From positions 93,088-157,087 of the forward strand of contig JBAXIO010000005.1 of NCBI GenBank assembly GCA_037138335.1: a stretch of 64,000 nt of DNA. Direction: 5' to 3'. The position numbers were made by a program, and so were the translations under genes. Shown in pieces: positions 20,270 to 51,533 of the stretch. Under the pieces are notes generated by a model that worked only from the letters and a program-made list of their open reading frames with translations, did no database searches and was not told the origin of the DNA. Each line of letters opens with the position of its first letter. Position 1 is the first letter of the stretch. The stretch comes from Bacteroidota bacterium (GTDB lineage: Bacteria > Bacteroidota > Bacteroidia > Bacteroidales > FEN-979).

Positions 20270-20271
20270 AA

Positions 20272-23200: not shown

Positions 23201-23334
23201 GAGAACTGGTTGCTTCATGCCCCATAAAGGACAAAACCACTTCACTTGCTGTTTCTGATATAAAAACAGGTGTTTACATATTGCTCGTGAAGCATAACAA
23301 CAGGCAGTATTATTTAAAAGTGGTGAAGCTCTGA
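20272..23334 (+). CDS. Large secreted protein with Ig-like repeats and a type A T9SS C-terminal sorting domain; N-terminal domain of unknown function
   Basis: Signal peptide. Repeated modules C.GDSI.L.A..G..FLWSTGDTT / YLWSNGDTT. C-terminus FAVYPNPFNESIGILM...GVYILLVKHNNRQYYLKVVKL. Track start TTG 20266 overlaps the porP-like stop; I used ATG 20272. Confidence 0.7.
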   Translation: MIRKGMQYILLLIVASAMLLPSAGISQNATKRGGIGFRIDENPPISKVHSYDSLLSKYGQKYSFAITSYVLPLVPQYVDTLKALSLRGIELMDNTPTHATQFLNVLNYQDTNLFSKKPGVDHINGQKVCLKYSAYDTTHSHGEGFINVFGNKVISYEPGEFHDLLSPSAYFAIYLGHPVDSLCLFYNVQSVNTSDPDTLYLRSFWDETKNFSDHWHFLYHKIQNINVVMHDSAVKILGKRSLDIFDSLHLPRPYTWIHPDGAYPWISSLKLQASLGVKLGFQQSTSFINPSLFCYNEFDPGKNKQFAINSEALSMESTSFRSNSHIIAEAIAKHYVLFDVARLTNSYGGWNAYLHRMDSLMVWCSSNNIPIRTYSQWKALLYDSVAQKVVNIFPKLDVDLDHNGWPDGFDDDTLNIHGRFDPSDGAPSSSGKSFKIEGGGTICKVTGLAGLEKRSNKFTIYTKCLRNHPSNIQVEVSFPGFSQTQTLEIKSDSTVWMPYSKTVNVPDSANIANFTITHDTAFHDTVKVSGFDFRSSGFLNKSRYPLQEETANVQFPPINMNDLVIASVYDPLTISWTFKGNHSMRFSVDTAGLMKSLKPTSFWIGRDSVFAIAHSQDGAVDSCFFRFRSDSIPAACAGGSINISILDTITGSDYIVWTSSPYDSTMTDTTIFNPTVSPKISTLYRVKVYNILGNIVRDSIYIIRHPIPVPGLFKDSTICRGDSIVLHALEGTSFLWSTGDTTASIKVRPDSLTRYTVHVTTQWDCSADDTTLIHVAPVPNVKLSGLLPQYCANDDSCYLLKGEPGAPPGIYGGSSGVRGSQFCPKYARPGKDTVWYKETSHQGCSNTATLYVNVNALPVIPKLHDTILCANKSIYLDGGTGADNYLWSNGDTTQFTVINYKDYGLGQFIVGVYATKAGCVSKDTTLISFIKCPDGIHDLSGDGQFAVYPNPFNESIGILMKDQAGEGDNASLLDLRGELVASCPIKDKTTSLAVSDIKTGVYILLVKHNNRQYYLKVVKL

Positions 23335-23335
23335 C

Positions 23336-24664
23336 CTATCCGATATCAAGCGTATCGATCACATCAGTGAGTTCCTTGGGCCTGTAGGGCTTAGCAAGGT
23401 ATTCATCCATTCCTGCCGAAATACATTTTTCCCGGTCGGTCATTATTACATGGGCCGTTACCGCTATTATTTTTATCGGAGGCCTGGCATTTACAGGGTC
23501 TTTCTCCCTTTGCTCTTTCTCGAAATTCCTGATTATATGCGTGGATTCCAGGCCGTCCATAATAGGCATGGCAATATCCATAATGATCAGATCATAATGC
23601 TTATCCCGGAATTTCTCAAAAGCGATTTTACCGTTTTCTGCTATCTCAACCTGGTGCCCCGACCGGGTAAGTGTTGTAGCGGCAAATTTCTGATTTAAAA
23701 TATTGTCCTCAACCAGCAATATCATTAACGGCCTGCTTTTCTTTACTTTATTTTGTTTCTGGCTGATGTTATTCCTGAAAGCTTCAATATCACCGGCTTC
23801 GTATAATAAGGTAAACCAGAATGTAGAACCAATGTCTTTTTTACTTGTCACGCCGATTTTACCCCTCATCAGGTCGATGAGGTTCTTTGAAATAGATAAG
23901 CCTAATCCGGTACCTTCAAATTGCTTTATCAACGGGCTGTCCAATTGGGCATATTCCTGGAACAAATCGGCTTGTTCATCCTCAGGGATACCCACCCCTG
24001 TGTCGGTAACTTCAAATTTCAACAGGACAAAACCCGGGGGAAGAGAATTCATAGAGTATACTTCTTCAGGAAGGTACTCGGTAAGTCTCAGGTCATCAAG
24101 CCTGTTAACATCAAGGATCTCAACAGATGCTACAACCGAACCTTCAAGGGTGAATTTTAATGCGTTGTTTGTAAGGTTGACAAGTATCTGATGCAGGCGT
24201 ACGGCATCCCCGATAATACATTCCGGCACCGCCGATTGGATCCTGTAAGAAAGTTCAATCCCCTTGCCCTTTGCCCTTAGCGACAACATCTTGATCACCT
24301 GATGGATTTCCTCGTGAAGCAGGAAAGGTTTGTTTTCAAGCTTAAGCTGCCCTGCTTTTATCTTGGAAAAATCAAGAATGTCATTGATGATAGCCAGCAG
24401 GTTATGGCTTGAGATGTTAATGACCTCAAGGAGTTCACGCTGCTCGGGACTCAGGTTTGTCTGGTCGAGAATATTGTAAATCCCAATGATGCTGTTCATA
24501 GGTGTCCTGATCTCATGGCTCATATTTGCCAGGAAGATGGTCTTGGTACGATCGGCATCGTAGGCTCTGATCTTTGCTTTTTCAAGGTCTTTGAGGGCCT
24601 GGTTATAATTAACTTCAAGTTCCTTTAAACGTAATTCGATTTCAGTTGCTTTTAATTCATCCAT
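23336..24664 (-). CDS. Soluble hybrid sensor histidine kinase/response regulator with no recognisable sensor domain
   Basis: About 45 aa of coiled coil, then H-box FLANMSHEIRTPMNSIIG, N-box LTNNALKFT, G1 DTGVGI, G2 GTGLGLSISK. Receiver: LLVEDN...DLIIMDIAMPIMDG...AVTAH...YLAKP. Confidence 0.85.
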   Translation of the reverse strand: MDELKATEIELRLKELEVNYNQALKDLEKAKIRAYDADRTKTIFLANMSHEIRTPMNSIIGIYNILDQTNLSPEQRELLEVINISSHNLLAIINDILDFSKIKAGQLKLENKPFLLHEEIHQVIKMLSLRAKGKGIELSYRIQSAVPECIIGDAVRLHQILVNLTNNALKFTLEGSVVASVEILDVNRLDDLRLTEYLPEEVYSMNSLPPGFVLLKFEVTDTGVGIPEDEQADLFQEYAQLDSPLIKQFEGTGLGLSISKNLIDLMRGKIGVTSKKDIGSTFWFTLLYEAGDIEAFRNNISQKQNKVKKSRPLMILLVEDNILNQKFAATTLTRSGHQVEIAENGKIAFEKFRDKHYDLIIMDIAMPIMDGLESTHIIRNFEKEQREKDPVNARPPIKIIAVTAHVIMTDREKCISAGMDEYLAKPYRPKELTDVIDTLDIG

Positions 24665-24668
24665 AAAA

Positions 24669-26084
24669 TCAAAACTTATTCAGTTGGTTCTTCATTATTG
24701 AATATAACTGCTGCTGGTTAATTGGTTTTGAAATATAATCATCAAAACCGGCTTCGAGCAGTTTTTCGCGGTCCCCGGCCATTGCATAAGCAGTTTGGGC
24801 GATAAAGGGAATGGAATTATATTGCTTCCAGTTCTTACGTATCTCATGCATCAGTTTTACACCATCCCAGGGAGGAGGAAGGTTAATATCAAACAGCATA
24901 ATATCAAAGAACCTGTTCTCGGCAGCCTTTTCTTTAATTATTTTCAGGGTTTCGTCTCCATTAACGGCTGCAATGACTGTGCCAAGCGACTTGGTCATCT
25001 CGGTCAGCACCAGCTTGTTCATCATGTCATCTTCAACAATAAAGATGTCGAGGTTGTGAAGACCCCTGGCCTTCTTTTTTTGTTCCTGTGATGAGGGTGC
25101 CGATTCCTGGGAGTACGCATCCCGGGTCCGTAAAAAAAGTGTTACTGTAGTTCCAACACCCTTCTCTGACTGGATTTCCAATATCCCCTGCATCATCTCA
25201 AGAAGACTTTTAGCAAGCGGCAAACCAAGGCCGGTACCCTTACCCTCTTTTGAGAACCCTGTTGTCTCGCTTTTAAACGGGGCAAGAAGCTCGGGTATGA
25301 ATGCAGGATCAATTCCCGTTCCGGTATCTTTAATGCGGATGGAAACCATGTCCCTTTCTTTATGAAAATCGGTTGAGATATTGATGAAGCCCTGTTCCGT
25401 GAATTTTATGGAGTTATCAAGTACGATACTGAGAGCTTTGGACAGTCCTGCTTCGTCGGCAAGTCCTTCGGGGATATCTCCCGGTTTAAAATTCAGCTTA
25501 AGCTTTTTCTTGTTAGACTGAAAAAGATGCACCTGGATGCTATTTGCGACGATCCCGTTTACCGAGCAGGGGATGGGTTTAAGAGTAAAATCGTTTGACT
25601 CGACCCTGCTGATATCAATAATGTTATTCAGCAAGTGAAGCAGCCTGTCACCGCTTTCCAGAACGGCGTGGGCATAATCAAACAATTCCTTGTTCTCAAT
25701 AACCGAAAGCTCGGCTTCAAGCAGGCTTGCAAAACCTATAATGTTGTTCAGAGGGGTCCTGATCTCTGAACTCACGTTAGAAAGAAAAGAGTTGAGAAGG
25801 AAATTTGCATCTTCAGCTTTTTTTAAAGCTTTCTTCAAAATCATATCCCTGTCCCTTTTCTCGTCATACTCTTCTTTAATAACGAGTGTTCTCTCGATAA
25901 CCTGGTTGTCGATCCCGGCTTCATATTCCCTTAACTTTGCAAGGGCATTCTGAAGCTCCCTGTCCTTACTTTTAAATTTATTTTCTAAATCTGCTGATTT
26001 ATTCCTGGCCTTGATGTTCTGGAAAACTGCAATTACAATCAGCAAGCCCGATAAAATGGCAAGAAAAATGCTTAATGAGTTCAT
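24669..26084 (-). CDS. Membrane-anchored hybrid kinase-like protein/response regulator whose H-box has Ser in place of the phospho-acceptor His
   Basis: One N-terminal TM helix, coiled coil, H-box FLSNVSSEIRTPLNNIIG (Ser106, codon at 25767-25769, where HEIRTP is expected). Intact N-box LDNSIKFT, G1 DTGTGI, G2 GTGLGLPLAK. Receiver: FIVEDD...IMLFDINLP...AQTA...YISKP. Confidence 0.8.
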   Translation of the reverse strand: MNSLSIFLAILSGLLIVIAVFQNIKARNKSADLENKFKSKDRELQNALAKLREYEAGIDNQVIERTLVIKEEYDEKRDRDMILKKALKKAEDANFLLNSFLSNVSSEIRTPLNNIIGFASLLEAELSVIENKELFDYAHAVLESGDRLLHLLNNIIDISRVESNDFTLKPIPCSVNGIVANSIQVHLFQSNKKKLKLNFKPGDIPEGLADEAGLSKALSIVLDNSIKFTEQGFINISTDFHKERDMVSIRIKDTGTGIDPAFIPELLAPFKSETTGFSKEGKGTGLGLPLAKSLLEMMQGILEIQSEKGVGTTVTLFLRTRDAYSQESAPSSQEQKKKARGLHNLDIFIVEDDMMNKLVLTEMTKSLGTVIAAVNGDETLKIIKEKAAENRFFDIMLFDINLPPPWDGVKLMHEIRKNWKQYNSIPFIAQTAYAMAGDREKLLEAGFDDYISKPINQQQLYSIMKNQLNKF

Positions 26085-38482: not shown

Positions 38483-39958
38483 TTAACTAAGGGGTTCTGT
38501 TATTACTTCATTTGGTTTTACGGGAATGAGTTTATCCATTGCAGGAGCCATAAACACATAGGCCATGCTGATATAAACGACCAGGCCGGTTGGGAACTGT
38601 CCCAGAACGGCATTGCCGTAGCTGGCAACCAGGATGCCGAAAACACCGCACAAAAGTGCGGCGATCTTCACCTCCAGATCTTTATTTTTTATCTGAAACA
38701 TGCTTATATATAATCCTTTGCCGGTAAAATAGCCCAGGATCAGAAGATGCAGGTAAAGGCCGATTATTCCCGCTTCCGCCCATATAAGAACAAACCAGCT
38801 GTCGGTAGCAACGCTTGAGAGGAAAGTCTCCCCTGTATATGTTATTGCCCTGCTTCCCGCGTGACCGATACCCCCTCCAAAAGGCCTGGTTTTAAGGTAA
38901 GCTTCAAAAATAGCCTGGTTCTTGAGCCTAACCTGAAATGATGCATCATCATCAGGAGTAAAAGCCGATCTCATCCGATATACCTGGTAACTGCTGTCGC
39001 CTATTGTCGTGTACCTGAAAAAGGAATAAATGAAGATGAGAAATATTGCACCAATTATAATTACTTTAACATTCTTCCTGATAATTATATATAAAGCGCC
39101 ACCTGCAAAAGGCACGAAAATTGCACCCCTGGTTCCGGAACTGGACATGCCATAATACCCGGCAATAAAAACAACGGCCCAGAACAGCCTGCTTCTTAAA
39201 CGTTTTTCATAAAAGAACATGATCATTGCAACAACCCCGATTTGCCCCTGGGCGGCACCAAACTGGCCGGCATCAGAGAAAAATGAGAAAGCCCGTAAAT
39301 TCCCCCACAGGATATGGGTCACGGCACCAACTTCATCAAGCCATTTTTGCTCCCACGGGTCAACCCCTATATTCAGCTGTATCCATGCTTTGGCTGATGC
39401 GATGATAGATATTATGGCCCATATTTTTAAAAAGCGGTCGAGGTGTTTCGGTGTATTATAAAGAAGTTGCACAAGGGGGATCACAAGTAACATGTATAAG
39501 CCTATACCACGCATGGAAGCAAACCAGGCTGTTTTATTCACTGCCTCAGGGTTGAACATTTCAAGTACAATATATCCGAACCATACCACGGCAAGGTAGG
39601 TCAGGTCATTTTGAACAGGTTTCAGGTCAAGCTTCTTGTCATAAAAATGGAAGAACATTGCGATATAAGTAGATATCAGCGTGATGTCCATCAGGTACCC
39701 CAATTTAACTGGGATATATCGGGAAATCCCGATGATAAAGAAATTAATGATAAAAGCGAAAGTAATACCGATCTCAGGTTTTAGAATAAGCCGGTAGAAT
39801 GAATAGAAAAGAATGGGGATCGCAATGACAATGGCAGCGGTCATCATGCCCCCCAGGGCCATTGCATAGCCCAAGACAATAGCAGCAATTAACATGATCC
39901 CAACCAGAAATGGATTTCTGAGTAGTTCAGCTCCGGTAGGTATTTGAAAAAGGTTCAT
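38483..39958 (-). CDS. O-antigen ligase/polymerase (Wzy-like) family membrane protein
   Basis: 491 aa, at least 10 predicted TM helices, central SSSGTRGAIFVPFAGG segment resembling the Wzy_C motif, positioned next to Wzx. Confidence 0.6.
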   Translation of the reverse strand: MNLFQIPTGAELLRNPFLVGIMLIAAIVLGYAMALGGMMTAAIVIAIPILFYSFYRLILKPEIGITFAFIINFFIIGISRYIPVKLGYLMDITLISTYIAMFFHFYDKKLDLKPVQNDLTYLAVVWFGYIVLEMFNPEAVNKTAWFASMRGIGLYMLLVIPLVQLLYNTPKHLDRFLKIWAIISIIASAKAWIQLNIGVDPWEQKWLDEVGAVTHILWGNLRAFSFFSDAGQFGAAQGQIGVVAMIMFFYEKRLRSRLFWAVVFIAGYYGMSSSGTRGAIFVPFAGGALYIIIRKNVKVIIIGAIFLIFIYSFFRYTTIGDSSYQVYRMRSAFTPDDDASFQVRLKNQAIFEAYLKTRPFGGGIGHAGSRAITYTGETFLSSVATDSWFVLIWAEAGIIGLYLHLLILGYFTGKGLYISMFQIKNKDLEVKIAALLCGVFGILVASYGNAVLGQFPTGLVVYISMAYVFMAPAMDKLIPVKPNEVITEPLS

Positions 39959-39963
39959 TGTTA

Positions 39964-41364
39964 CTATTGAAATAAGGGTTCTTTGTTTTTAAGGCGCTTG
40001 TTTAATTCTTTATAAAAAGCAAAGCCTTTCGAAAAAATAAGGGTGAATGAAATGTCTATTTCTTTCTTCAGAAAATGATATCCTATAAACAGTCCGATTA
40101 CAGAAAACACTATCGACGCTATTGCAACGAATAAAAGAATCGTTATCGGGGGCATGGAAGGAAAAAGGTAATGCAGTCCGAAAATTGCGAAGACATCCCC
40201 GAGTATGTTGGCGATAGTCATTACAGCCACTTTCTGGAAATTCTTATCCGGCCTGTTCAGGCTGTCAAGTGCAACTCCTGTAAAGCGGTCTAGGGGCATG
40301 AGCATCCCATAGAGGATAAACACCATAAGGACATAAGTAATATGCGGAGAAGTCGTAAGATATTTTGCCCCTCCGAGAATAAGAATGAAATATTTATTCA
40401 GAACAAGGCTGATTGCCGCAATGAGGATGAAAATATAGACTATCGGGCCGGTATAGGCATAATAAATCCTCTTAAAGCCTTCCTTGTTATTTTCCATGCT
40501 CATTTTTGAGAGTTTGGGGAAGGCTGTTGTTGCAAAGCTAAGCAGGGGGATCTCAATGAATTCAATGTATTTCAATGGTATGGCATATATTGCGACACTG
40601 GCAGGACCCATGAATGCGCTGAAAGATATAATAAAACTGTCGGCACCTTTGAGAAGGCTGCTCCCAATGCGTGTTGCCATGGAATACCTCCCGTATTTCA
40701 GGATATCAACGACTTTTTCTTTACTTATATGCCGGATGTACTGAAGGCCGGTCCATTTGCGGATAACACAAAACAAGGAAGTAGCCAGGTTCGTCGCAAT
40801 ATATATGAGCACTACCGTTTTTACATCAATTTTAATGAAGAGGTAGGCAAAGAAGATGATCACCAGAAATGAGCAAAGGTTGAAAAACCTTATCCACAGT
40901 ATCTTTCCAAAATCAATGTCGGCCTGGAAGATTGACCAGGCGTAATTCCATGGCAGGGTGACAAGCCCGAGCAGGGGGTACCAGGTAAAGAACAAAGAAT
41001 AGCCGCTTTCCTGCAAGGCATGAGGGATTAGCAGCGCAACGGTCCATAAAATCACCGTAATGCCGGCAAGAATAAGCAAACCTACCACCCAGGCAGAACC
41101 AAGATAATATTTTCTTTCCTCCGTATTACTTCCTGAAAGGTACCTGACAAGGGCTTCTTTTGTTACTCCGAACCTCAGCATGTCGATTAAGGAGGCAGGT
41201 GTAGTAAACAGGATCCAAATACCAAAATCATGGATGGATAACATCCTGAGAAGAATCATAAAAGAAAACAGGCCGGCCAGGGCGGTCGACAGGTTCCCGG
41301 CGAATGAAAGGAAATTCGCGTCTTTTACTATCTTAAACGATGTTTGTTTTAAGAATGCCCACAT
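39964..41364 (-). CDS. Polysaccharide flippase (Wzx/MOP superfamily)
   Basis: 466 aa, about 12-14 TM helices, no soluble domain, located between the PCP and Wzy-like genes. Assignment rests on topology and context. Confidence 0.65.
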   Translation of the reverse strand: MWAFLKQTSFKIVKDANFLSFAGNLSTALAGLFSFMILLRMLSIHDFGIWILFTTPASLIDMLRFGVTKEALVRYLSGSNTEERKYYLGSAWVVGLLILAGITVILWTVALLIPHALQESGYSLFFTWYPLLGLVTLPWNYAWSIFQADIDFGKILWIRFFNLCSFLVIIFFAYLFIKIDVKTVVLIYIATNLATSLFCVIRKWTGLQYIRHISKEKVVDILKYGRYSMATRIGSSLLKGADSFIISFSAFMGPASVAIYAIPLKYIEFIEIPLLSFATTAFPKLSKMSMENNKEGFKRIYYAYTGPIVYIFILIAAISLVLNKYFILILGGAKYLTTSPHITYVLMVFILYGMLMPLDRFTGVALDSLNRPDKNFQKVAVMTIANILGDVFAIFGLHYLFPSMPPITILLFVAIASIVFSVIGLFIGYHFLKKEIDISFTLIFSKGFAFYKELNKRLKNKEPLFQ

Positions 41365-41387
41365 GATGAATCAAATTATGGCCATCA

Positions 41388-44078
41388 TCAGGAAATGACA
41401 TTGTCTTCACGAAATCTGAATGTCAGAATCCTTTTAACCGTTTTGCGAAACTTTGATCGTGGTTTTGGGATTTCTCCGAAAACCGAATCCAGGAACATCA
41501 GCTCAACCCCGTTAAGGACGATCTGGGTAGGTTGTTTTGTAACGGAAAGGAATCCATTCAAGGCAGCCTTGTCGGCATCGGTCCATGACCGGTTAGCCCT
41601 TACAACGAGGAGGGCAAGGTCAAATTTTGAAATCAGATCGATCGGATAGGCATTATTAATGAGGGATGGTAATTCAATGAAAATGTAATCATAGGACTCC
41701 AGGTCGAGATGTTCATAACCTCTCAGGAGTTCCATGGTGTCTTTTGTCTCAAAGAAATTATCCTGAATAATATACTGGACTTCATCTTCAGCAGGAGGGA
41801 TCAGTTCCCCATTGCCAAATTCTTCTGCCGGCCCCAGGTTCTCCTTGATATAATTCAGAAAAAGTGCATTTTCTCCAAATGATTTGAATTTCCTGCTGAG
41901 CTCTCTGCCAATGGTTGTTTTGCCTTCATAATCCCTGGTACTGAAAAGAAGAATGATGATTGGTTTCTTTTCGCTGTTACTTAAAAATTTGTGAAGGCTG
42001 ATTTTAATATTCTGGGCCATAATTTCAACAAGCCTGGGTAAAATAAACCCGATATCCACATTGTAAATCTGTTTTACAATTTTAGGATAAAGCCCGGCAA
42101 GTTTGAGTTTGATAAGCCGCTCTGCCCTTTCACCTGTTTTAATAGTAGTGTCGAAGAATTCGAGGGCAAGCAAAACAATGATGACAAAGATCAATCCAAG
42201 TATAGCTGATGCGAGGACCAGCAGCATAGCTTTAGACCTTAAGGCATGAAGGGGATAATAAGGAGCGTCCACTACTTTAAGGTTTGTGGCCAGCTCATCA
42301 TCCTGCTGCCTGAGTTTTGCAAGGTTAAGGTCATGCAAGAGTTCGAGGAATTCACTTTCCGTAACACCGATAAGCCGTTCAAATCTCTTCTGCTGGGCTC
42401 CTAAGGGGGCGAATACCTCATAGACTTTCTGAAAATACCTCTTCCGTTCGGTCAGCACCCTGAGTGCGGCTTTGCTTTCTTCGTAATTAACGACATTTGT
42501 GAGCCAGGCGTTAAGCAGGTCTTTCAAGGGCAGGCCTTCAACTGAGTTGGTAACAAGGTAAAGCTGGTCGATATTGTCTTTCAATTCCAGTTTAATCGCT
42601 TCAACTTTGTTTTTAAGGGTTGTAAGTTGTTTGATGGTCGCCGAGTCATTGCCAAGATCGATCTCAATATTGGCAATTTGCATGGTTGTGTTGGTCAGGT
42701 CATTGCGAAGCCTCAGGATGGCGCTGGTGTTCAGCGAAAGTTTAGCATGGTTTTCCAGTTTCTTCTCAATTATCTTAATAGCTGCATCGGAGGAAGCAAG
42801 GGCGATTTGTTTATTCTGGAAGTCAACATCAAGTTCTTCTTTCGTGCTGGCGATTACTTTTGTCTGCTCGTAGAAGTTGATGATGTTGTTTTTTGAATTG
42901 AACATGAGCAGGTCCGATTCGGCTCTTTGCAGCTTTCTCATGGCTGCTTCAAGTTGTGCCCTGAAATAGGCAATTACCGCATCCGTTTGATTCTGTTTAA
43001 GCAATTTGAATGAGCGGATGAAGCCTTTGGTCAGGAATACAAGCGTTTGCTGGGCAATGCCGGCATCAGTGGATTTATAAGTAAGTTTCAGCAGGTCGCT
43101 GCTTTGGATCCTTACTGTTTCGACTGTAGATAAGGCACTGAGGCTGTAGAACGGGTCTTTTTGTGAATTCCAGAGTTCATATATAAAATTATAATCATTC
43201 TGGTGGCCATAGGCTACCAGTTGTCTTACCAATCTGTCAAATGCAGTTGTGTCTGTTAAATTACGGTGTGAAATGCTTATAGTTGTGGAAGTATCAAATT
43301 GAGAGTAAAAGTCGGAAGGCAGGGAAGTCGTATCAACCACTCCTTCAGAACTGCCCGTTCTGACGGGTGCAGGTTCGATTTTTTCAGTTTCGGTAGGATA
43401 TGAAGCAGGTTCCGGCATCTGTCCCGGGATATCAACTTTCAGTCTCTGTCCTGAAGAGATCTCAGTGTTCCTGAGCCGGTTATAACTCATCAGTTTCCTC
43501 ACGCTCAAACCGTAGTTGCGGGCGATAGAAAACATAGTTTCCCCTGGTTTGACCACATGGTAGGATTCCCTGGGCTGAGGGGGTTGGTAAGCTGTTTTTT
43601 CTGAATTATTTTGAGTTTCCGGTGAAGAATAGGAGGTATCGGCCTGGGAAGTCTTTTTTGAAGGGGCTTTGAAAAATTTAGGATTCGAGCGTTTTGCTTT
43701 TCTCACGATATCCATAACATCGGGGGGCACCTTCGAGATGAGTTCGTCATAGTGTTCCTTTGATATATATCTTTCATCGTAATGATCCAGTAAAAGGTGT
43801 TGGGCCAGGAGGGAGGCAGAGACTTCTTCCAGGGTCTGCCGGGAACGGATAAGGTTGATAAGATTGTCATAGATGGTGTTTTTGACCATCACGTCGGTAT
43901 AGGCTTGCTGCTGCACAGTATAGCCGGAAGTTACGCCGGTATAAATAGTAGTTTCCGAGATGTAACTCCACTGGTCCTTTCGGGTCAAGAAGAAGACGAC
44001 TGCTGCAATCAGAAGCGGGACAAGTATCAGTAGCAATACATGTCGTTGTAATATCTTGACAAAGTAGATAATTTTCAT
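41388..44078 (-). CDS. Polysaccharide co-polymerase (Wzz/GumC/Wzc-like) with an inserted LysM domain and a degenerate C-terminal P-loop module
   Basis: N-terminal TM helix, long coiled-coil periplasmic region, second TM MLLVLASAILGLIFVIIVLLAL, P-loop FSTRDYEGKTTIG, Walker-B-like YDYIFIELPS. LysM YHVVKPGETMFSIARNYGLSVRKLMSYNRLRNTEISSGQRLKV at aa 173-216. Confidence 0.75.
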   Translation of the reverse strand: MKIIYFVKILQRHVLLLILVPLLIAAVVFFLTRKDQWSYISETTIYTGVTSGYTVQQQAYTDVMVKNTIYDNLINLIRSRQTLEEVSASLLAQHLLLDHYDERYISKEHYDELISKVPPDVMDIVRKAKRSNPKFFKAPSKKTSQADTSYSSPETQNNSEKTAYQPPQPRESYHVVKPGETMFSIARNYGLSVRKLMSYNRLRNTEISSGQRLKVDIPGQMPEPASYPTETEKIEPAPVRTGSSEGVVDTTSLPSDFYSQFDTSTTISISHRNLTDTTAFDRLVRQLVAYGHQNDYNFIYELWNSQKDPFYSLSALSTVETVRIQSSDLLKLTYKSTDAGIAQQTLVFLTKGFIRSFKLLKQNQTDAVIAYFRAQLEAAMRKLQRAESDLLMFNSKNNIINFYEQTKVIASTKEELDVDFQNKQIALASSDAAIKIIEKKLENHAKLSLNTSAILRLRNDLTNTTMQIANIEIDLGNDSATIKQLTTLKNKVEAIKLELKDNIDQLYLVTNSVEGLPLKDLLNAWLTNVVNYEESKAALRVLTERKRYFQKVYEVFAPLGAQQKRFERLIGVTESEFLELLHDLNLAKLRQQDDELATNLKVVDAPYYPLHALRSKAMLLVLASAILGLIFVIIVLLALEFFDTTIKTGERAERLIKLKLAGLYPKIVKQIYNVDIGFILPRLVEIMAQNIKISLHKFLSNSEKKPIIILLFSTRDYEGKTTIGRELSRKFKSFGENALFLNYIKENLGPAEEFGNGELIPPAEDEVQYIIQDNFFETKDTMELLRGYEHLDLESYDYIFIELPSLINNAYPIDLISKFDLALLVVRANRSWTDADKAALNGFLSVTKQPTQIVLNGVELMFLDSVFGEIPKPRSKFRKTVKRILTFRFREDNVIS
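43431..43562 (-). other. LysM (peptidoglycan/chitin-binding) domain embedded in the PCP protein
   Basis: Close match to the LysM consensus Y.V..GDTL..IA..Y......L...N.L.....I..GQ.L.I; flanked by Pro/Ser/Thr/Gln-rich linkers. Confidence 0.8.
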
Positions 44079-44866
44079 TATTCTATTTTGTTAATAACGT
44101 TGAATTTAAAACCACAAAGTTCCTGCAATATCATGTATGAATTGAAGAATGCATTCCTTGAGGTCTCGTAATTGTATACGGCAACTCGGTACATTTCCAT
44201 TATATAGGCAAGATCATATAAGGTTGACTGGCCGTTGAGAAATTCTTTATCGCCCATTTCTTTGTTCATTGCCCCGGCAATAACGCTCTCATTTGCATTC
44301 TTAAGGATCTTCTGATTAACGATCAGCTGATTATATTGTGTAATGATTTTTTGTCGCAACTCCAGGATCACATTGTCCTTGTTTGCCATCGACTTTTCAA
44401 TTTCCTTGGTTGCCGTTTTCATCTGGTTCTTGCGGTCCCAGAAATCCTGCATAGGGAGGCGGAAGCTGACCTGTCCAAACCCCCTGTAACTGTTCTGGAA
44501 AGAATACATGATATTGTTATCGCCGAGGTTGCTGGTATTATTTGTGGTAGCATCCCACCAGTCGGTCTGCAGATATCCGTCAAGATAAAAATTTCTCATC
44601 CAGACCCGGCCGACTGATATAACCCTGTAACGCCATGCATCTATGTCAGCTTCATAGTATTTAATCTGCGGATTGTGTACAACGGCAGAGTCGATAAGGT
44701 CTTCAAGGGGGGGGATGCGCTGTGTGATATCATCTATAAGGGGGTTGAAATAGGTAGTGTCCCTCATCTGGCCAAAGCCCAGTGCGGGCAGCAGGAATAA
44801 CACCATCAGGAAAAAGTGCTGCAACACTTTCTTTAAATCAGGTCTTTCAGAATTCAGGATTCCCAT
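44078..44866 (-). CDS. Secreted protein resembling a single TolC/OEP-type repeat (half-size outer-membrane factor)
   Basis: Signal-like hydrophobic N-terminus, LEDLIDSAVVHNPQIKYYEADIDAWRY (OEP-family opening motif), helical heptad-rich C-terminal half, terminal aromatic GFKF. Translationally coupled on both sides (TAAATG and TAATG junctions). Confidence 0.35.
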   Translation of the reverse strand: MGILNSERPDLKKVLQHFFLMVLFLLPALGFGQMRDTTYFNPLIDDITQRIPPLEDLIDSAVVHNPQIKYYEADIDAWRYRVISVGRVWMRNFYLDGYLQTDWWDATTNNTSNLGDNNIMYSFQNSYRGFGQVSFRLPMQDFWDRKNQMKTATKEIEKSMANKDNVILELRQKIITQYNQLIVNQKILKNANESVIAGAMNKEMGDKEFLNGQSTLYDLAYIMEMYRVAVYNYETSRNAFFNSYMILQELCGFKFNVINKIE

Positions 44867-46099
44867 TTACATATTCTCCTTTTGAAATAAAGCGCCGAAT
44901 GTTCTGAATATGATAACCAGGTCACTCCAGAATGTGTTATGCTCGGCATAATAATTGTCAAGTGCGAACCTCTCTTCTTCCGACATTGGTCCGGTTCTCC
45001 CTCTTTTTTCTACCTGCCAGAGACCGGTCAAACCAGCTGCCGACCGGAACCTGCGGCTCCATTTCTTTTTTGTCAGGGCTTCGGCTTCATTTAAAGGTAA
45101 AGGCCGGTTCCCGACGATCGACATATCCCCTTTAAGGACATTGATAAGTTGCGGCAATTCATCGATACTCGTCATCCTGATAAATTTGCCGACCTTGGTT
45201 ATCCTCGGGTCGTCTTTAATTTTAAGGAAAGCCTTCCTGGCGCTCCTGCGTTTGTTTGCTATTCTTTCACAAACCTGTTCTCCATCATAATATACCAGGG
45301 GGGAACAATACTGCCCCTCGGGTAATTTGGCGCATTCGGTGCATTTGACCTCCACGGTTTCACTGATATACTGGTTGAGATGCTCAACTTCCTTTAATCG
45401 TTTGTCGGCATCAGGATACATCGAACGGAACTTATAGAAATCAAAAATTTTGTAATTGGCACCAACCCTTTTTGAAAAATAATATACTTTCCCTCTGGAT
45501 TCAATCCGTATCGCAAACATGGTAATGATCATCAGAGGGGAAAGGACAAGAAGTGAAGTCCCCGCCACAAGGAGATCGAACGTCCGTTTAATGAACGGGG
45601 TTTTATAAGCGTTAAAGCTGACGCTTGTATCGACCACGATGGTTTTATTCTCAAATTCCGATTTGAATTTCTTGAGAAGGTTGATCCTGTTATGTATATT
45701 CTCGGGAACAATGTCCTGATGATAAAAATCATCTATGCCCAGCATGTAGGCATTTTTCTTTGCACTGTAATCTTTAAAAAAAGAGATGACAATAAAGGGT
45801 GTTTTCTGGTAAAGCTTGTTAAGCTTTAAACGCCTGAAGAACGAGAATGCATTGATCCCCGGAAGGAGCAGTTCACAAACAATTGCGTCAATAGGCTGTT
45901 TTTCCTCGTATTTTATATCGAACCTTGTGTCCTTGTCCAGGTCGAAAATTTTAAATTGATTGTCGGTCAGCCAATAGATTGCCGATAAGGGATCCCCCAT
46001 GACGGTAACATTGAAGTACCTGGAATTACGGAATTGCTCAGCCATTGACTGATCTTTACCGATATACAGGATATTTAATGCCGTGTTTTCTTTCTCCAT
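44867..46099 (-). CDS. Undecaprenyl-phosphate sugar phosphotransferase (bacterial sugar transferase family) fused to an N-terminal degenerate receiver domain
   Basis: C-terminal PGT core KRTFDLLVAG...RIESRGKVYYFSKRVG...KFRSM...DPRITKVGKFIRMTSIDELPQLINVLKGDMSIVGNRPLP. N-terminal about 135 aa shows a CheY-fold pattern, with IVCELLLPG (Glu76 at the Asp position) and DDFYHQD (no Lys). Confidence 0.85.
   Translation of the reverse strand: MEKENTALNILYIGKDQSMAEQFRNSRYFNVTVMGDPLSAIYWLTDNQFKIFDLDKDTRFDIKYEEKQPIDAIVCELLLPGINAFSFFRRLKLNKLYQKTPFIVISFFKDYSAKKNAYMLGIDDFYHQDIVPENIHNRINLLKKFKSEFENKTIVVDTSVSFNAYKTPFIKRTFDLLVAGTSLLVLSPLMIITMFAIRIESRGKVYYFSKRVGANYKIFDFYKFRSMYPDADKRLKEVEHLNQYISETVEVKCTECAKLPEGQYCSPLVYYDGEQVCERIANKRRSARKAFLKIKDDPRITKVGKFIRMTSIDELPQLINVLKGDMSIVGNRPLPLNEAEALTKKKWSRRFRSAAGLTGLWQVEKRGRTGPMSEEERFALDNYYAEHNTFWSDLVIIFRTFGALFQKENM
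45695..46087 (-). other. Receiver-like (pseudo-receiver) domain of the priming transferase
   Basis: beta1 ILYIGKDQ (DD replaced by KD), beta3 DAIVCELLLPGINAF (D replaced by E), beta4 FIVISF, beta5 GIDDFYHQD (K absent). Confidence 0.6.
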
Positions 46100-46104
46100 C
46101 AGGA

Positions 46105-46506
46105 TTATTGGCTGCTTTTGATGCCCGAAAAGGCTACAGATGTTTCAATACGTCTTTTGATCCTTACAATCAGCTCCCTTGGATTAAATGGTTTCACAAC
46201 ATAATCATCGGCCCCCATTTCAAAACATTTGATTTTATCGGAACTTTCTTCCTTCCCGGATAACATGATCAATGGTATCTCATCAAAAAAACCACTTTCC
46301 CGTATGCGCTTGATAAATTCAAATCCATTCATCACGGGCATTTCCACGTCGCAGATGATTACATCCGGAAGGTTCCCCGACTGGATGTAATAAAGTGCAT
46401 CCATCCCGTTGCTGAGGGTTGTCACTTCAAACTCTTTATTGAAAGTATTTTCTATGATGAACCGGATACTCTTTTCATCGTCTATAGCGAGTATCTTTCT
46501 TTTCAT
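46105..46506 (-). CDS. Single-domain CheY-like response regulator
   Basis: All receiver signatures are intact: ILAIDDE, DVIICDVEMPVMNG, LIMLSG, GADDYVVKPF. 133 aa with no output domain. Confidence 0.9.
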   Translation of the reverse strand: MKRKILAIDDEKSIRFIIENTFNKEFEVTTLSNGMDALYYIQSGNLPDVIICDVEMPVMNGFEFIKRIRESGFFDEIPLIMLSGKEESSDKIKCFEMGADDYVVKPFNPRELIVRIKRRIETSVAFSGIKSSQ

Positions 46507-46526
46507 TTAGAATCAGTTTTGGTAAG

Positions 46527-46534
46527 CAAATATA
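46527..46534 (-). promoter_or_regulatory. Candidate -7 promoter box TATATTTG (TAnnTTTG) for the polysaccharide operon
   Basis: Exact consensus match on the minus strand, 20 nt upstream of the response-regulator ATG, with a TTTG element 13 nt further upstream. Confidence 0.35.
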
Positions 46535-46619
46535 TTCGAATTTACCCCAAACTGCCAAAAAGGTTATTAACAATAAAACGAAAGTTATTAAGAAGAGGAC
46601 TGGCGGAGGTTTAACGAAA

Positions 46620-48641
46620 TCAAACTTCCGGAAGTGCCTTTCTTAAAGATACAAGCTCATCACGCAATCTTGCAGCTTCAAGAAAATCAAGCTGTTTGAC
46701 AGCTTCTTCCATTGCCTTAGCTGTCTCCCTGATTAATTTTTGAATTTTGTCTTTGGGAAGATAGGCAATTAAGGGATCTGCAGCATTGTCAAGATTTTCT
46801 TTCTCAATGTATGGACGGCCTTTGCCGGAAATTCCTTCATCTATACTCCTGGCATCGAAAACATTTCTCATATCCTTGGTGATCTGCATGGGAGTAATGT
46901 TGTATTTCGCGTTGTAGGCTGATTGTTTTTCCCTTCTCCTGTTGGCTTCCGACATCATCCTTTTCATGGATTCGGTGATCTTGTCTGCATACAGGATCAC
47001 CCTGCTGTTGACATTCCTTGCCGCTCTCCCGGCTGTTTGGGTCAGGCTGCGTTCCGACCTGAGAAATCCTTCTTTGTCAGCATCCAGGATCGCTACAAGC
47101 GAGACTTCCGGAAGGTCCAGCCCTTCTCTCAGAAGGTTGACTCCGACAATGACATCAATCGTGCCGGTCCTGAGGTCATTGAGTATATCCACACGGTCCA
47201 TGGTGACTACGTCAGAATGGATATACCTTGATTTAATGTTAAGTTTTACAAAATACTTGTTTAACTCTTCGGCCATTCTTTTGGTAAGGGTTGTCACGAG
47301 CACTCTTTCGTTGATGATAACCCGCTGATTTATCTCATCCAGAAGGTCATCGATCTGGTTCATGCTCGGCCTTACTTCAACCAGTGGATCAAGAAGCCCG
47401 GTCGGGCGGATGAGCTGTTCCACCACGACGCCTTCCGACTTCTGAAGTTCGAAATCTGCAGGGGTAGCACTTACAAAGACCGTCTGGCCTACAATTGCTT
47501 CGAATTCATCAAACTTAAGGGGACGGTTGTCCATTGCAGACGGCAGCCTGAAACCGTATTCAACAAGAGTTTGTTTGCGGGAACGGTCGCCTCCGTACAT
47601 TGCCCTGATCTGCGGCACTGTAACGTGGCTTTCGTCAATGACCATCAGGAAATCATCGGGAAAATAATCGAGGAGGCAGAACGGCCTTGACCCCGGAGCC
47701 CTGCCGTCAAAGTACCTGGAGTAATTCTCTATACCTGAACAATAGCCAAGTTCCCTCATCATTTCCATGTCATATGTGACCCGGTCTTCAAGTCTTTTTG
47801 CTTCGAGGGCTTTTCCGTCATTCCTGAAATAATCGGTCTGACGGAATAGATCATCCTGTATCTCTGTCAGGGCTTCCTTCATCTTATCCTGGGAAGTGAC
47901 AAAGATGTTGGCCGGGTAAACCTGGATAAATTCCAGGGGTTCTATCATCCGCCCCGAAACAGGGTCAAAAGATTCAAGTTTTTCAATCTCGTCCCCCCAG
48001 AAAATGATACGGTAAGCAATATCCAGGTATGCAGGAAAAACATCTACAACATCACCTTTCACCCTGAATTTTCCCCTGGTGAATTCCGCTTCAGTTCTTG
48101 AATAAAGGCTGTTTACAAAGCTCATTAGAAGGGTGTTCCTGCTTATAACATCCCCCAGTTTAAGTTTCACAATATTACCGGCAAAATCATCAGGGTTCCC
48201 GATCCCGTAGATGCAGGAGACTGACGAAATTACGATAACGTCGCGCCTGCCGGAAAGGAGGGCCGAAGATGCGCTCAGCCGTAGTTTTTCAATTTCCTCG
48301 TTGATGGAAAGGTCTTTCTCGATATAAGTGTTTGTTACAGGCAAATAGGCTTCGGGCTGATAATAATCATAATAGGAAACAAAAAACTCGACTGCGTTTT
48401 CAGGGAAGAACTCACGAAATTCCCCGTACAGCTGGGCGGCAAGAGTTTTATTATGGCTTAGCACAAGTGTGGGCCGTTGAATGCGTTCTATCACGTTCGC
48501 GATAGTGAAGGTTTTCCCTGAGCCGGTCACTCCCGCCAGCACCTGGGCCTGGTCACCCCGTTTGAGCCCTTCAACAAGTTCCCTTATTGCTTCAGGCTGG
48601 TCGCCGGTAGGCACAAAATCGGTCGTTAAACGGAACTCCAT
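46620..48641 (-). CDS. uvrB: Excinuclease ABC subunit B
   Basis: FVPTGDQPEAI, Walker A GVTGSGKTFT, VIDESHVT, helicase motif VI TAGRAARN, C-terminal UVR motif LDFLEAARLRDEL. Start set to ATG 48641 (MEFRL) rather than the track TTG. Confidence 0.95.
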   Translation of the reverse strand: MEFRLTTDFVPTGDQPEAIRELVEGLKRGDQAQVLAGVTGSGKTFTIANVIERIQRPTLVLSHNKTLAAQLYGEFREFFPENAVEFFVSYYDYYQPEAYLPVTNTYIEKDLSINEEIEKLRLSASSALLSGRRDVIVISSVSCIYGIGNPDDFAGNIVKLKLGDVISRNTLLMSFVNSLYSRTEAEFTRGKFRVKGDVVDVFPAYLDIAYRIIFWGDEIEKLESFDPVSGRMIEPLEFIQVYPANIFVTSQDKMKEALTEIQDDLFRQTDYFRNDGKALEAKRLEDRVTYDMEMMRELGYCSGIENYSRYFDGRAPGSRPFCLLDYFPDDFLMVIDESHVTVPQIRAMYGGDRSRKQTLVEYGFRLPSAMDNRPLKFDEFEAIVGQTVFVSATPADFELQKSEGVVVEQLIRPTGLLDPLVEVRPSMNQIDDLLDEINQRVIINERVLVTTLTKRMAEELNKYFVKLNIKSRYIHSDVVTMDRVDILNDLRTGTIDVIVGVNLLREGLDLPEVSLVAILDADKEGFLRSERSLTQTAGRAARNVNSRVILYADKITESMKRMMSEANRRREKQSAYNAKYNITPMQITKDMRNVFDARSIDEGISGKGRPYIEKENLDNAADPLIAYLPKDKIQKLIRETAKAMEEAVKQLDFLEAARLRDELVSLRKALPEV

Positions 48642-48643
48642 AC

Positions 48644-49780
48644 TCAATGCTTAAATGTAAACGTCGAAATAACAGGGTAGTGGTCCGACATGCTCACTTC
48701 CTTCTTCTGATAAGAGGTGGCTGTAAAAAAATCATCATACAGCATGTAGTCGATGCGGAAAGCAGGGAAGCGCCCGCCTGCATAGGTACTGCCTATCCAT
48801 TCATTCCCTGAACTGACGAATGCGTCATTCCTGTTCAGGGATAAGGTATGGTAAGCAAAAGAAGAGGGAGTATCATTAAAATCTCCGCAGATCAGCACCG
48901 GGTAAGGGCTGTATTTCATATGTGCAGTAAGCATCTCGACCTGCATAGCCCTCAGGGCGAAGGCCTTCTTCAGTTTCCATAACATCTTCCTGGAACCTTT
49001 GGCGAAATTCTTTTCATCAGCCCCCGGGTCGGTCAGATTTGAATAAAAGGAATAATCATCATTCCCGAGACGGATTGATTCAAGGTGAAGGTTGTATACC
49101 CTGATCGTATCACCATGTATTGCGATATCGGTAAAAATCCCAAAAGTGCTCTTTTCCTGCAGCCTGAAAAATCCCTGGTCCACAATCGGGTACCTTGAAA
49201 ATGTGGCTATTGCATTAATTTTCGTCTTCTGCCAGAAATCCCTGTAGTTTTTAAAGAAGAAATACTCAAGGCGGATGGACCGGGAGAATTTGTGCAGGGT
49301 TTTCAGGTACTCTTCACCTATGGCGTAAAACTCCTGCACACATACAAGGTCAGGGTTCTCCCCGGCAAGAAAATCAGTTACCTGGCTCCTTGTTTCGGGC
49401 TGTACATTATCAGCCTGGTTACCATAAAGGCTGTGAACATTATATGTAGCCACCTTGAAAGCTGCGGGGCTGGCGGGTTTTATGGAACCAAACCGAAGCG
49501 GAATGATCGTTCTCAGGTTTCCAATCCCTACAAAAATTGTCAGCAGTGAAATAAAAATGAACCTGTTCCACAGGATAAGCCAGATGACAACAAACAGCAG
49601 GTTAATGATCAGGAGGACAGGGTAGGCTATGCCGAAGAAGGCAAAGGGCCAGAAGGTTAAGGGGCTTATATAGGCTGCAGCATAGGAACATAACAGTGAT
49701 GCTGCAGCAAAATAATTAAAAAGCAGGAATAAAGCTTTCGCCCACTGCCTTTTTTTGCCTGTTTTGTTTACTTTCCCCAT
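48644..49780 (-). CDS. Membrane-anchored endonuclease/exonuclease/phosphatase (EEP) family protein
   Basis: Three N-terminal TM helices, then EEP motifs VATYNVHS, DLVCVQE, LICGDFND, SDHYPV. Start trimmed to MGKVNK to avoid overlapping the upstream rhomboid gene. Confidence 0.7.
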   Translation of the reverse strand: MGKVNKTGKKRQWAKALFLLFNYFAAASLLCSYAAAYISPLTFWPFAFFGIAYPVLLIINLLFVVIWLILWNRFIFISLLTIFVGIGNLRTIIPLRFGSIKPASPAAFKVATYNVHSLYGNQADNVQPETRSQVTDFLAGENPDLVCVQEFYAIGEEYLKTLHKFSRSIRLEYFFFKNYRDFWQKTKINAIATFSRYPIVDQGFFRLQEKSTFGIFTDIAIHGDTIRVYNLHLESIRLGNDDYSFYSNLTDPGADEKNFAKGSRKMLWKLKKAFALRAMQVEMLTAHMKYSPYPVLICGDFNDTPSSFAYHTLSLNRNDAFVSSGNEWIGSTYAGGRFPAFRIDYMLYDDFFTATSYQKKEVSMSDHYPVISTFTFKH

Positions 49781-49784
49781 ATAT

Positions 49785-50699
49785 TCAACGTTTGCCCGAC
49801 GAACGGAACAGGAAATCTTTCTCATCCCGAGTCAGGCTGTCATAGCCACCCTTTGATATTTTATCGAGAATGCGGTCCATGCGTTTTTGTTTTTCAGCTT
49901 TTTGCAGGTTGTATTCTTCGTCGCTTACCGCACGGGTGCCGGTATAATTTATACTGGCTTTCATGGTCTTTTTCCTGAAAAACCCTGTCCACCACTTAAA
50001 CCCGCCCGGCGGGAGGTTGCCTGCAAGCCCTGATAACTGGATGTAAAGAAACCCAAAAAGGGCACCGCCGATGTGCGCAATATGGCCCCCGGCATTTCCT
50101 GCGGGGATCATAAAGAAGTCGAATATAAACAAAGCAATTGCAAGGTAAAGAATCCGTATCCTTCCAAAGAATAGCAGGTTGACTGAATAATTTGGCACCT
50201 TGAATGAAATAGCGGTGACAATAGCCATCACTGAGGCAGAAGCGCCAAGTGCATAAGAGATCGGCAGGGATGGTGCAAAAACGGGAAAAATATTAAATGC
50301 AAGAATATATACCAGGGCTCCCGAGATGCCTCCCAGGAAATATACTACAAGCAGTTTCCTGCTGCCAAGATATTCCTGGAATATCTTGCCGAACCAAAAG
50401 AACGGCAACATGTTGAAAAGGATATGTGACAGATCGATATGCAGGAACATATACGTCACGATAGTCCAGGGTTTATTGATCAGCAACGGAACCGAAGCCG
50501 GAACCCCGAAGATCCTGATAATGGAAGTTGTGGCTAAGGCCGCATCGGGCTGGTTATATAAAAAGAAAATAATCCTGAAAACCTGCACTAGCAACCATAC
50601 TGCAACATTGACTATGATCAGGTTGGCCAGTACAGACCCTTCCCTGAAAAACCTTTTCAGATTGTCACCTGGATTCGGATTTGCGGAATAGGGGTTCAT
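49785..50699 (-). CDS. Rhomboid-family intramembrane serine protease with a C-terminal soluble extension
   Basis: HIDLSHILFNM, GASASVMA (GxSx), HIAHIGGALFG (catalytic His context), plus a roughly 80-aa charged tail. Confidence 0.8.
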   Translation of the reverse strand: MNPYSANPNPGDNLKRFFREGSVLANLIIVNVAVWLLVQVFRIIFFLYNQPDAALATTSIIRIFGVPASVPLLINKPWTIVTYMFLHIDLSHILFNMLPFFWFGKIFQEYLGSRKLLVVYFLGGISGALVYILAFNIFPVFAPSLPISYALGASASVMAIVTAISFKVPNYSVNLLFFGRIRILYLAIALFIFDFFMIPAGNAGGHIAHIGGALFGFLYIQLSGLAGNLPPGGFKWWTGFFRKKTMKASINYTGTRAVSDEEYNLQKAEKQKRMDRILDKISKGGYDSLTRDEKDFLFRSSGKR

Positions 50700-50702
50700 C
50701 GA

Positions 50703-51533
50703 TTAAAATTTTGCTTTTCGTTTCCAGTACAAGATCATGAAAAATCCGAATATCATGCCCCCCAGATGTGCAAAATGCGCGATATTGTCGGAAGGATTAT
50801 TGGAAATCCCGAGGTAAACTTCCCATGCCCCATAGGCGATTACCAGCCATTTTGCCTTGATAGGGAATAAAAAGTAAATAAAGACCAGCATATTCGGGAA
50901 CATCATCCCGAATGCGAGCAGGATGCCAAAAACCGCCCCGGAAGCTCCAATGGTTGAAATGTCCATTTGCTGTTTGATAAGGTCATAGATATAAACAACA
51001 GATTGCCGCTGGTAATGTACATCGCTCAATGAATTCTGCCATTGGGCAAGAAGGGCGTTCATCTGGTCGAGAATTTCCTGGCTCCTCGGCGGGCATGATT
51101 TAACAAAGGCTACAAAAGCATCAGGGGAAGGTGCCGACGAATAGGCAAGGGCAGCAGCTTCATATCCTGAGAAATGCCAGTAATTGACAGCTGTCTGGAT
51201 AATTCCGGCCCCTATACCTGTAACCAGGTAATATGTAAGGAACCTCTTGGGCCCCCATACATTTTCAAGCAGGTAGCCGAACATCCACAAGGCAAACATA
51301 TTCCAGAGGATATGCTGGAAGGATGCATGAAAAAACATATAAGTCACAAACTGGTAAATTCTGAAGAGGTCCGACTTGAAATAATGAAGCCCGAAAAGAT
51401 TTGTCAGGTCGATCCTGAATGTGCTTTCAAGCGATAAGGTAGCAACATAGCAGATAAGGTTTATGATCAATAGATTTTTTACAACAGTGGGGAGAAGTTT
51501 GAATCCGGTAAGACTATATCGATCGTAACTCAT
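50703..51533 (-). CDS. Rhomboid-family intramembrane serine protease
   Basis: FHASFQHILWNM, GASGAVFGIL (GxSG), HFAHLGGMIFG. Confidence 0.85.
   Translation of the reverse strand: MSYDRYSLTGFKLLPTVVKNLLIINLICYVATLSLESTFRIDLTNLFGLHYFKSDLFRIYQFVTYMFFHASFQHILWNMFALWMFGYLLENVWGPKRFLTYYLVTGIGAGIIQTAVNYWHFSGYEAAALAYSSAPSPDAFVAFVKSCPPRSQEILDQMNALLAQWQNSLSDVHYQRQSVVYIYDLIKQQMDISTIGASGAVFGILLAFGMMFPNMLVFIYFLFPIKAKWLVIAYGAWEVYLGISNNPSDNIAHFAHLGGMIFGFFMILYWKRKAKF

Follow-up and report, generated by a model that had tools for sequence, protein, structure and literature searches.

The locus

The 64,000-nucleotide window analysed here (contig JBAXIO010000005.1 of assembly GCA_037138335.1, positions 93,088 to 157,087 of the forward strand) comes from an uncultured freshwater member of the Bacteroidota (Bacteroidales, FEN-979) and includes the regulatory head of a Wzx/Wzy-type exopolysaccharide operon. 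Two genes on the minus strand form this head: a stand-alone single-domain response regulator, followed by a receiver-like domain fused to a small monotopic phosphoglycosyl transferase (PGT). Only 5 nucleotides separate the regulator stop from the PGT start. The fused domain has lost the phosphorylation residues that the upstream regulator keeps, the pair recurs across the phylum, and the transferase core carries an enlarged loop with four conserved cysteines (Table 1).

Table 1. Features of the regulator-PGT locus and of the operon that it heads, with positions in the window
Feature	Position	Strand	Remarks
Promoter-like -7 box TAtaTTTG	46529..46536	-	Letters read directly; ~22 nucleotides 5' of regulator ATG
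Single-domain response regulator, 133 residues	46105..46506	-	Response_reg 100.6 bits
Pseudo-receiver + monotopic PGT fusion, 410 residues	44867..46099	-	Pfam, NCBIfam, AF2, Foldseek
Pseudo-receiver domain, residues 1-150	45650..46099	-	(beta-alpha)5 fold; AF2, Foldseek, BLASTP, Response_reg
C75, directly before Glu76	45875-45877	-	Conserved in 97/112 close homologs; frequent in distant representatives
Glu76 codon, phospho-acceptor position (IVCELL)	45872..45874	-	
Predicted re-entrant membrane helix, residues 169-201	45497..45595	-	K171-R172 at start; S187-P188 break motif
Enlarged mobile loop, M227 to R299	45203..45421	-	
Cys4 module, C253-x2-C256-x8-C265-x11-C277	45269..45343	-	CxxC knuckle, beta-hairpin, then helix
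Asp313-Glu314 catalytic dyad (SIDELPQL)	45158..45163	-	
N331-R332-P333, replacing the usual P-R-P motif	45107-45109 (N331)	-	
Half-size TolC/OEP-like outer-membrane protein, 262 residues	44078..44866	-	Next gene after PGT; conserved
Wzz/GNVR-type polysaccharide co-polymerase with LysM domain, 896 residues	41388..44078	-	
Putative Wzx-type flippase, 466 residues	39964-41364	-	Position and size; no significant or informative Pfam match
Wzy/O-antigen-ligase-like polymerase	38483-39958	-	Wzy_C match
Hybrid histidine kinase	24669..26084	-	One transmembrane helix, coiled coil, HisKA, HATPase, REC; near operon end
Hybrid histidine kinase	23336..24664	-	Coiled coil, HisKA, HATPase, REC; last gene of operon

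A pseudo-receiver fused to the transferase

Several lines of evidence assign a receiver fold to the N-terminal domain of the PGT. An AlphaFold2 (AF2) model based on 112 close homologs (full-length, at least 53% identity) has a mean predicted local distance difference test score (pLDDT) of 77.7 and displays a confident (beta-alpha)5 arrangement for residues 8-148 (N-domain pLDDT 85-93), then a disordered or flexible interdomain linker (pLDDT 40), the long helix 169-201 and the transferase core. Foldseek places the domain close to the receivers 3t6k, PhoP and DrrD, with template modelling (TM) scores of about 0.8 and a root-mean-square deviation of about 2.5 A. The Response_reg profile (PF00072) matches residues 62-139 of the full protein at 29.8 bits, just below the cut-off of 30.2, and exceeds it (32.7 bits) when residues 1-170 are searched alone. 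About 20 extra residues (46-68) are present between alpha2 and beta3. They hold a DxDxDT motif (FDLDKDT; residues 53-58, 45926-45943, minus strand) that recalls the calcium-binding DxDxDG loop and whose conservation is limited to the close family.

The catalytic positions can be compared directly with those of the upstream regulator, as BLASTP of the regulator against residues 1-170 (E=1e-12) and hmmalign to the regulator profile give concordant equivalences. Regulator D9/D10 correspond to G14/K15 of the fused domain, D53 to E76 and K105 to Q128; S106, opposite S83, is the sole catalytic residue retained, and D16 falls opposite regulator E11. Because the acidic pair, the phospho-accepting Asp and the Lys are all replaced, the fused domain is an aspartate-less pseudo-receiver. 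An earlier note on this DNA had proposed a receiver fold with Glu76 at the phospho-site, a missing Lys and an intact 133-residue regulator 5 nucleotides upstream. All four points stand: gap placement brings no genuine Asp to position 76, and the regulator keeps D9-D10, D53, S83 and K105-P106. Its acidic pair, read as 'KD', was one residue off and is 'GK'.

The degeneracy is a property of the family. Position 76 is Glu in 98, Asp in 8 and Asn in 3 of the close homologs; G14 is invariant among them, and position 128 is Lys in just 51 of the 112. In a broader set of 139 full-length representatives (of 150 chosen at the 50%-identity level), the phospho-site is Glu in 55 and Asp in 45, the rest having Asn, Ala, Ser, Gln, His or others, which leaves an acidic residue in 100/139. 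The first acidic residue has become Gly in 104/139. Lys survives in just 14 of the 57 representatives with Glu at the phospho-site, and a fully canonical receiver set in only four proteins (P0169, P0192, P0232 and P0235). Other parts of the domain are constrained, as evidenced by strong conservation of the alpha2 region (N36, L38, A40, W43, L44 and T45) and conservation of an alpha5 face formed by R138, L142 and K146. An N-domain profile gives 53 bits for the adjacent regulator, against 25 and 12 bits for the receivers of the operon's two hybrid kinases, and these scores are consistent with the fused domain and the adjacent regulator being paralogous.

Conserved pairing with a stand-alone regulator

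The pairing was examined at 80 Bacteroidota genome loci, 75 of them with informative upstream sequence, spanning Bacteroidales, Flavobacteriales, Cytophagales and Sphingobacteriales and including Parabacteroides, Pedobacter and Mucilaginibacter. The PGTs of these loci diverge to about 40% identity. At 74 of the 75 the gene directly 5' of the PGT is a stand-alone regulator, mostly with a gap of -4 to +40 nucleotides, and every one of the 74 regulators scored retains the catalytic set DD-D-S/T-K-P. The cassette has a conserved order: regulator, PGT, half-size TolC-like protein, LysM-bearing co-polymerase, Wzx and Wzy.

A metagenome scan seeded with canonical receiver-PGTs returned mainly generic PGTs, together with 10 further degenerate members and no extra canonical fusions. 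All 10 have a stand-alone regulator open reading frame (ORF) directly upstream; seven of these regulators are fully canonical (DD or ED, D, S/T and K) and three ORFs are truncated or divergent. For genomes and metagenomes combined, a regulator precedes the PGT at 84/85 loci with a degenerate N-domain. As a negative control, 51 generic PGT loci with 500 nucleotides or more of upstream sequence were examined, and no such regulator was found in front of any of their PGTs.

The fusions with a canonical receiver show the inverse pattern. No stand-alone regulator precedes any of the three for which the upstream region is known (L081, L083 and L085). Two of them adjoin a divergent NtrC-type regulator and a PAS-containing hybrid kinase, one with Hpt, and the third adjoins Wzy. 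A further arrangement occurs in two Cytophagales metagenome-assembled genomes, in which the gene directly after a canonical regulator encodes a small PGT with the Cys4 loop and without a fused domain (L049, 8025-9206; L080, 7583-8789). These two loci may represent a fission or fusion intermediate. The family therefore exists in three states: regulator plus PGT, canonical receiver-PGT, and regulator plus pseudo-receiver-PGT. In each state one phosphorylatable receiver is present, beside or on the enzyme, exactly once.

The catalytic core and its enlarged loop

The C-terminal part of the fusion is a PGT core. Bac_transf (PF02397) matches residues 171-405 (E=2e-57; 194.1 bits vs a cut-off of 27), and Foldseek aligns the core with Campylobacter PglC (8e37_A; E=1.2e-11, TM score on the target 0.81). 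K171, R172 and P188 of the predicted re-entrant helix are invariant in the close homologs, and S187 is present and conserved; the Ser-Pro break presumably has the role that the same motif has in the re-entrant helix of PglC. DSSP assignment of the AF2 model gives a continuous helix for residues 169-201. The catalytic dyad D313-E314 is invariant in 112/112 close homologs and in 147/147 representatives reaching the position, of 150. N331-R332-P333 stands where P-R-P is usual, and since only one of the 149 representatives aligned there departs from NRP, it marks a subfamily and not a loss of the family fold.

The major elaboration of the core lies in the segment equivalent to the mobile loop of PglC (residues 61-81, Met63 to Arg79), which shuts over the UDP-sugar and varies with substrate class (PMC12550135). 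Mapping the loop through the conserved Met and Arg, and assuming that a tag offsets the numbering of the PDB chain, gives Met-to-Arg distances of 72 residues here, 33 in WbaP and 16 in PglC. The KFRSM-to-DPRIT region is about 39 residues longer than in WbaP. It contains the Cys4 segment (residues 253-277, CTECAKLPEGQYCSPLVYYDGEQVC), in which C253, C256, C265 and C277 are invariant in the close homologs, down to 53% identity. The four-cysteine insert described from the sequence is thus real and conserved as a unit, which fits a possible role in metal binding. The AF2 models place a short helix at the CxxC; it is followed by a beta-hairpin (268-277) that C265 and C277 bracket, and the hairpin by another helix. 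Modelled in isolation with a 59-sequence alignment, the insert (residues 222-303) reaches a pLDDT of 70.9.

The cysteines come and go together. Among 106 long-loop representatives, the loop has four Cys in 51 and none in 44, with few intermediates, and 33 short-loop representatives have no loop Cys. Cys-free long loops retain a hairpin-like '[LIV][LIV]xxDDxxxxE' sequence and have acidic low-complexity sequence in place of the CxxC part. An all-or-none set of Cys in a cytoplasmic domain resembles a dispensable structural metal site, and a four-or-none pattern is typical of dispensable structural zinc sites such as that of the adenylate kinase lid. The Cys4 module is most likely a structural zinc clamp, judging from this pattern.

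Relation to known systems

The closest functional precedent is EpsW/EpsZ of Myxococcus xanthus, in which a phosphorylated single-domain regulator directly contacts and activates the initiating monotopic PGT post-translationally (PMC12802240). Such direct control of an initiating PGT was shown only in 2025 and in this one myxobacterium. Both systems encode a phosphorylatable single-domain regulator together with an exopolysaccharide-initiating monotopic PGT, the present pair being known from its genes. EpsZ, however, is a large PGT with a four-transmembrane-helix bundle and a domain of unknown function (DUF) lacking the beta-hairpin, and it has no fused receiver, whereas the window PGT combines a small-PGT core with a pseudo-receiver and the Cys4 loop; Pfam and AF2 detect neither the bundle nor the DUF in it, and its N-terminal region is a receiver fold. 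Dimer stabilization has been proposed for the myxobacterial pair; the present pair is from Bacteroidota.

Receiver fusions to small monotopic PGTs are already on record (O'Toole, Imperiali & Allen 2021, as cited in PMC12802240), and as far as that citing account describes them they share the Response_reg plus Bac_transf architecture of the window PGT. A phospho-signalling domain at the N-terminus of a small PGT that controls formation of a polysaccharide layer is also found in All4160 of Anabaena, a STAS-Bac_transf fusion regulated by phosphorylation (bioRxiv 10.64898/2026.04.08.717354). All4160 uses a STAS domain, Ser phosphorylation and partner-switching logic, in contrast to the pseudo-receiver here. 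Relative to Campylobacter PglC (PDB 8E37/8G1N; PMC12550135), the catalytic fold, Asp-Glu dyad and Met...Arg loop are shared, as the re-entrant helix probably is, but the window PGT has the 72- instead of 16-residue loop, the Cys4 module, NRP for PRP and an added N-terminal regulatory domain.

The fused domain resembles other aspartate-less receivers in having Glu at the Asp site, where it is their commonest replacement, and in losing the second acidic residue and the Lys (PMC4395418, PMC12632262). Those receivers have DNA-binding outputs and usually retain the first acidic residue, whereas here the output is a membrane enzyme and that residue is mostly Gly. Heterodimers of a receiver with a pseudo-receiver, for example WhiI/BldM, are one proposed mode of action (PMC12632262).

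Receiver-PGT fusions, to the extent just stated, Glu-type pseudo-receivers, which are common, and one experimental regulator-to-PGT precedent are therefore already known. The literature searched contains no report specific to the combination of Bac_transf and Response_reg or to a Bacteroidetes regulator-PGT pair. Nor did we find in it a description of the near-universal degeneracy of PGT-fused receivers, of their strict pairing with an intact regulator and its inverse in canonical fusions, or of a Cys4 elaboration of the PGT mobile loop.

A proposed mechanism and its alternatives

The system has the look of a switch that turns capsule or slime production on and off post-translationally. Kinases of the cluster would phosphorylate the stand-alone regulator, which would then bind the PGT. 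The likeliest contact is the pseudo-receiver, in a receiver/pseudo-receiver heterodimer, and the phosphorylated regulator may also touch the catalytic domain. Binding would set the activity of the first committed step, which consumes undecaprenyl phosphate, so that control would be post-translational, as it is with phosphorylated EpsW and EpsZ. The pseudo-receiver would itself stay unphosphorylated; held in the cytoplasm just ahead of the predicted re-entrant helix, it would serve as a module for docking or transduction. The enlarged mobile loop would be a natural target for a regulatory domain, the element that is moved, and the Cys4 zinc clamp would rigidify it as it closes over the UDP-sugar. 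Taken together, the comparative evidence inclines us modestly towards this reading, in which the phosphorylated regulator controls the PGT, the pseudo-receiver docks or transduces and Cys4 is a structural metal clamp. The earlier suggestion that the fused domain serves as a docking module gains indirect support from the distribution of the regulator, which adjoins the PGT at nearly all loci with a degenerate domain but not beside canonical fusions.

Several observations weigh against this proposal. In L049 and L080 a regulator is paired with a PGT that has no pseudo-receiver. Pairing can thus do without this domain, whose role is the least secure part of the proposal. The AF2 monomer has a predicted TM score of 0.48, leaving the domain arrangement uncertain. 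Within it the Cys4 module has a pLDDT of 52-80, and metal binding is read from the sequence pattern alone. The insert has no match in Pfam even at E<=10, and a Foldseek search of the PDB with the isolated insert returned nothing significant (best E=5.6; a LIM domain at E=9.7). In many relatives the regulator pairing is the same although the cysteines, or the insert as a whole, are absent; Cys4 is thus dispensable for pairing. The cluster encodes no Hpt domain, which weakens the proposed route from the hybrid kinases to the regulator. Finally, gene adjacency can mirror shared transcriptional logic alone.

In one alternative the pseudo-receiver is constitutive and signal-independent, either 'locked on' by Glu76 or serving as a mere dimerization or membrane-proximal scaffold. 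The regulator would then act elsewhere, on the co-polymerase, on transcription via a partner or as a phosphate sink for hybrid kinases, and would adjoin the PGT only through a shared operon. Single-domain regulators often serve as sinks for hybrid kinases, Glu is the classical phosphomimetic and the replacement most often seen in aspartate-less receivers, and both the acidic phospho-site of most representatives and the conserved alpha5 face agree with a constitutive domain. However, the Lys and acidic pair that a mimic needs are missing, Lys being scarce even among Glu-site representatives. Mere co-regulation would not be expected to produce the strict order of regulator then PGT, stop and start codons that often overlap or nearly abut, or the absence of the regulator beside canonical fused receivers. 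We regard this alternative as unlikely. The earlier idea of a phosphomimetic lock is weakened on the same grounds, with the site drifting across the family. Glu76 as a classical phosphomimetic was given low weight, since Glu mimics work through Thr and Lys and the Lys partner is absent.

A somewhat less likely possibility again is that the regulator makes direct contact with the catalytic domain of the PGT, as EpsW does with EpsZ, and that the pseudo-receiver is a degenerate paralog competing or buffering in cis, an autoinhibitory mimic displaced by the phosphorylated regulator. The canonical regulators beside small unfused PGTs in L049 and L080, the greater similarity of the N-domain to the adjacent regulator than to other receivers compared and the flexible interdomain linker would all suit such a mimic. 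The strongly conserved alpha2 region, on the other hand, suggests a specific surface of its own and not simple mimicry, and the account departs from the docking proposal only in the surface contacted.

It is very unlikely that Cys4 is instead a redox or iron-sulfur sensor tuning the PGT to oxygen or oxidative stress, for although four invariant cytoplasmic Cys lie within a substrate-gating loop and C75 beside E76 is conserved too, the spacing (CxxC, 3-10 residues, C, 10-13 residues, C) is unlike usual 4Fe-4S motifs, Cys-containing and Cys-free forms occur in aerobic and anaerobic lineages alike with no obvious ecological split, and the clean four-or-none pattern with a hairpin kept in Cys-free forms is typical of a dispensable structural zinc site.

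A more elaborate version of the docking proposal is tentative and, as a whole, rather doubtful. It describes a three-part switch, not previously described, in which the phosphorylated regulator heterodimerizes with the Glu-type pseudo-receiver on the PGT and thereby repositions a metal-clamped, three- to four-fold enlarged loop, opening or closing the UDP-sugar site. Such a switch might have evolved from a genuine receiver-PGT fusion, or from a regulator and PGT encoded separately, by division of the phospho-accepting and docking roles between two paralogous receivers. The gene arrangement is widespread in Bacteroidota exopolysaccharide loci.

The present family bears on how bacteria ration undecaprenyl phosphate among competing glycan pathways. 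It suggests that Bacteroidota commonly use a solution related to EpsW/EpsZ and structurally different from it, gut Parabacteroides and soil Pedobacter and Mucilaginibacter being among the examples. Its three natural forms offer a series for dissecting receiver control of a membrane enzyme. The family also supplies a bacterial pseudo-receiver with an obvious candidate partner, otherwise lacking in the pseudo-receiver field, and draws attention to the undescribed Cys4 elaboration of the mobile loop.

Operon, expression and neighbouring genes

The operon extends from 46506 to 23336. Besides the genes in Table 1 it encodes GT2, GT4 and GT1 transferases, an acetyltransferase, a beta-helix protein and a methyltransferase. 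The Wzx- and Wzy-type genes keep the same positions in related loci. Neither of the two hybrid kinases has a recognizable sensor domain; homologs of the last kinase adjoin the regulator in four other loci (L024, L026, L042 and L050).

The -7 box is of the Bacteroidetes TAnnTTTG type and presumably belongs to the operon promoter; further TTTG motifs lie 5' of it. Metagenomes from freshwater and lakes contain the sequence. Two metatranscriptomes yielded contigs, at 46045-46474 and 46021-46328, that cross the regulator-PGT junction, and another RNA contig (44763-44983) spans the junction of the PGT with the OEP-like gene. No RNA contig covers 46504-46900, and the RNA contigs begin downstream of the -7 box. 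These data, assembled contigs at low depth and a weak measure of transcription, fit a single transcript that begins at the regulator and co-transcribes regulator and PGT. A scan of 40000-50000 with Rfam found no riboswitch or leader RNA, and PADLOC found no match to a defence system. Antisense ORFs inside the PGT gene (for example 44955-45290, plus strand) were taken as chance.

In related loci the 262-residue TolC/OEP-like protein is always 3' of the PGT. The cluster showed no Wza/Poly_export gene, so export across the outer membrane may rely on an unusual component. The co-polymerase has its LysM domain at residues 174-215 and a P-loop-like 'EGKTT' near the C-terminus, and is without a C-terminal tyrosine cluster. 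Converging on the end of the polysaccharide operon is a plus-strand gene (20266-23334) for a 1022-residue protein with a type IX secretion system C-terminal sorting domain. On the other side, two adjoining rhomboid-family genes (49785-51533, minus strand), one with a DUF6576 tail, lie upstream of UvrB and endonuclease-exonuclease-phosphatase genes.

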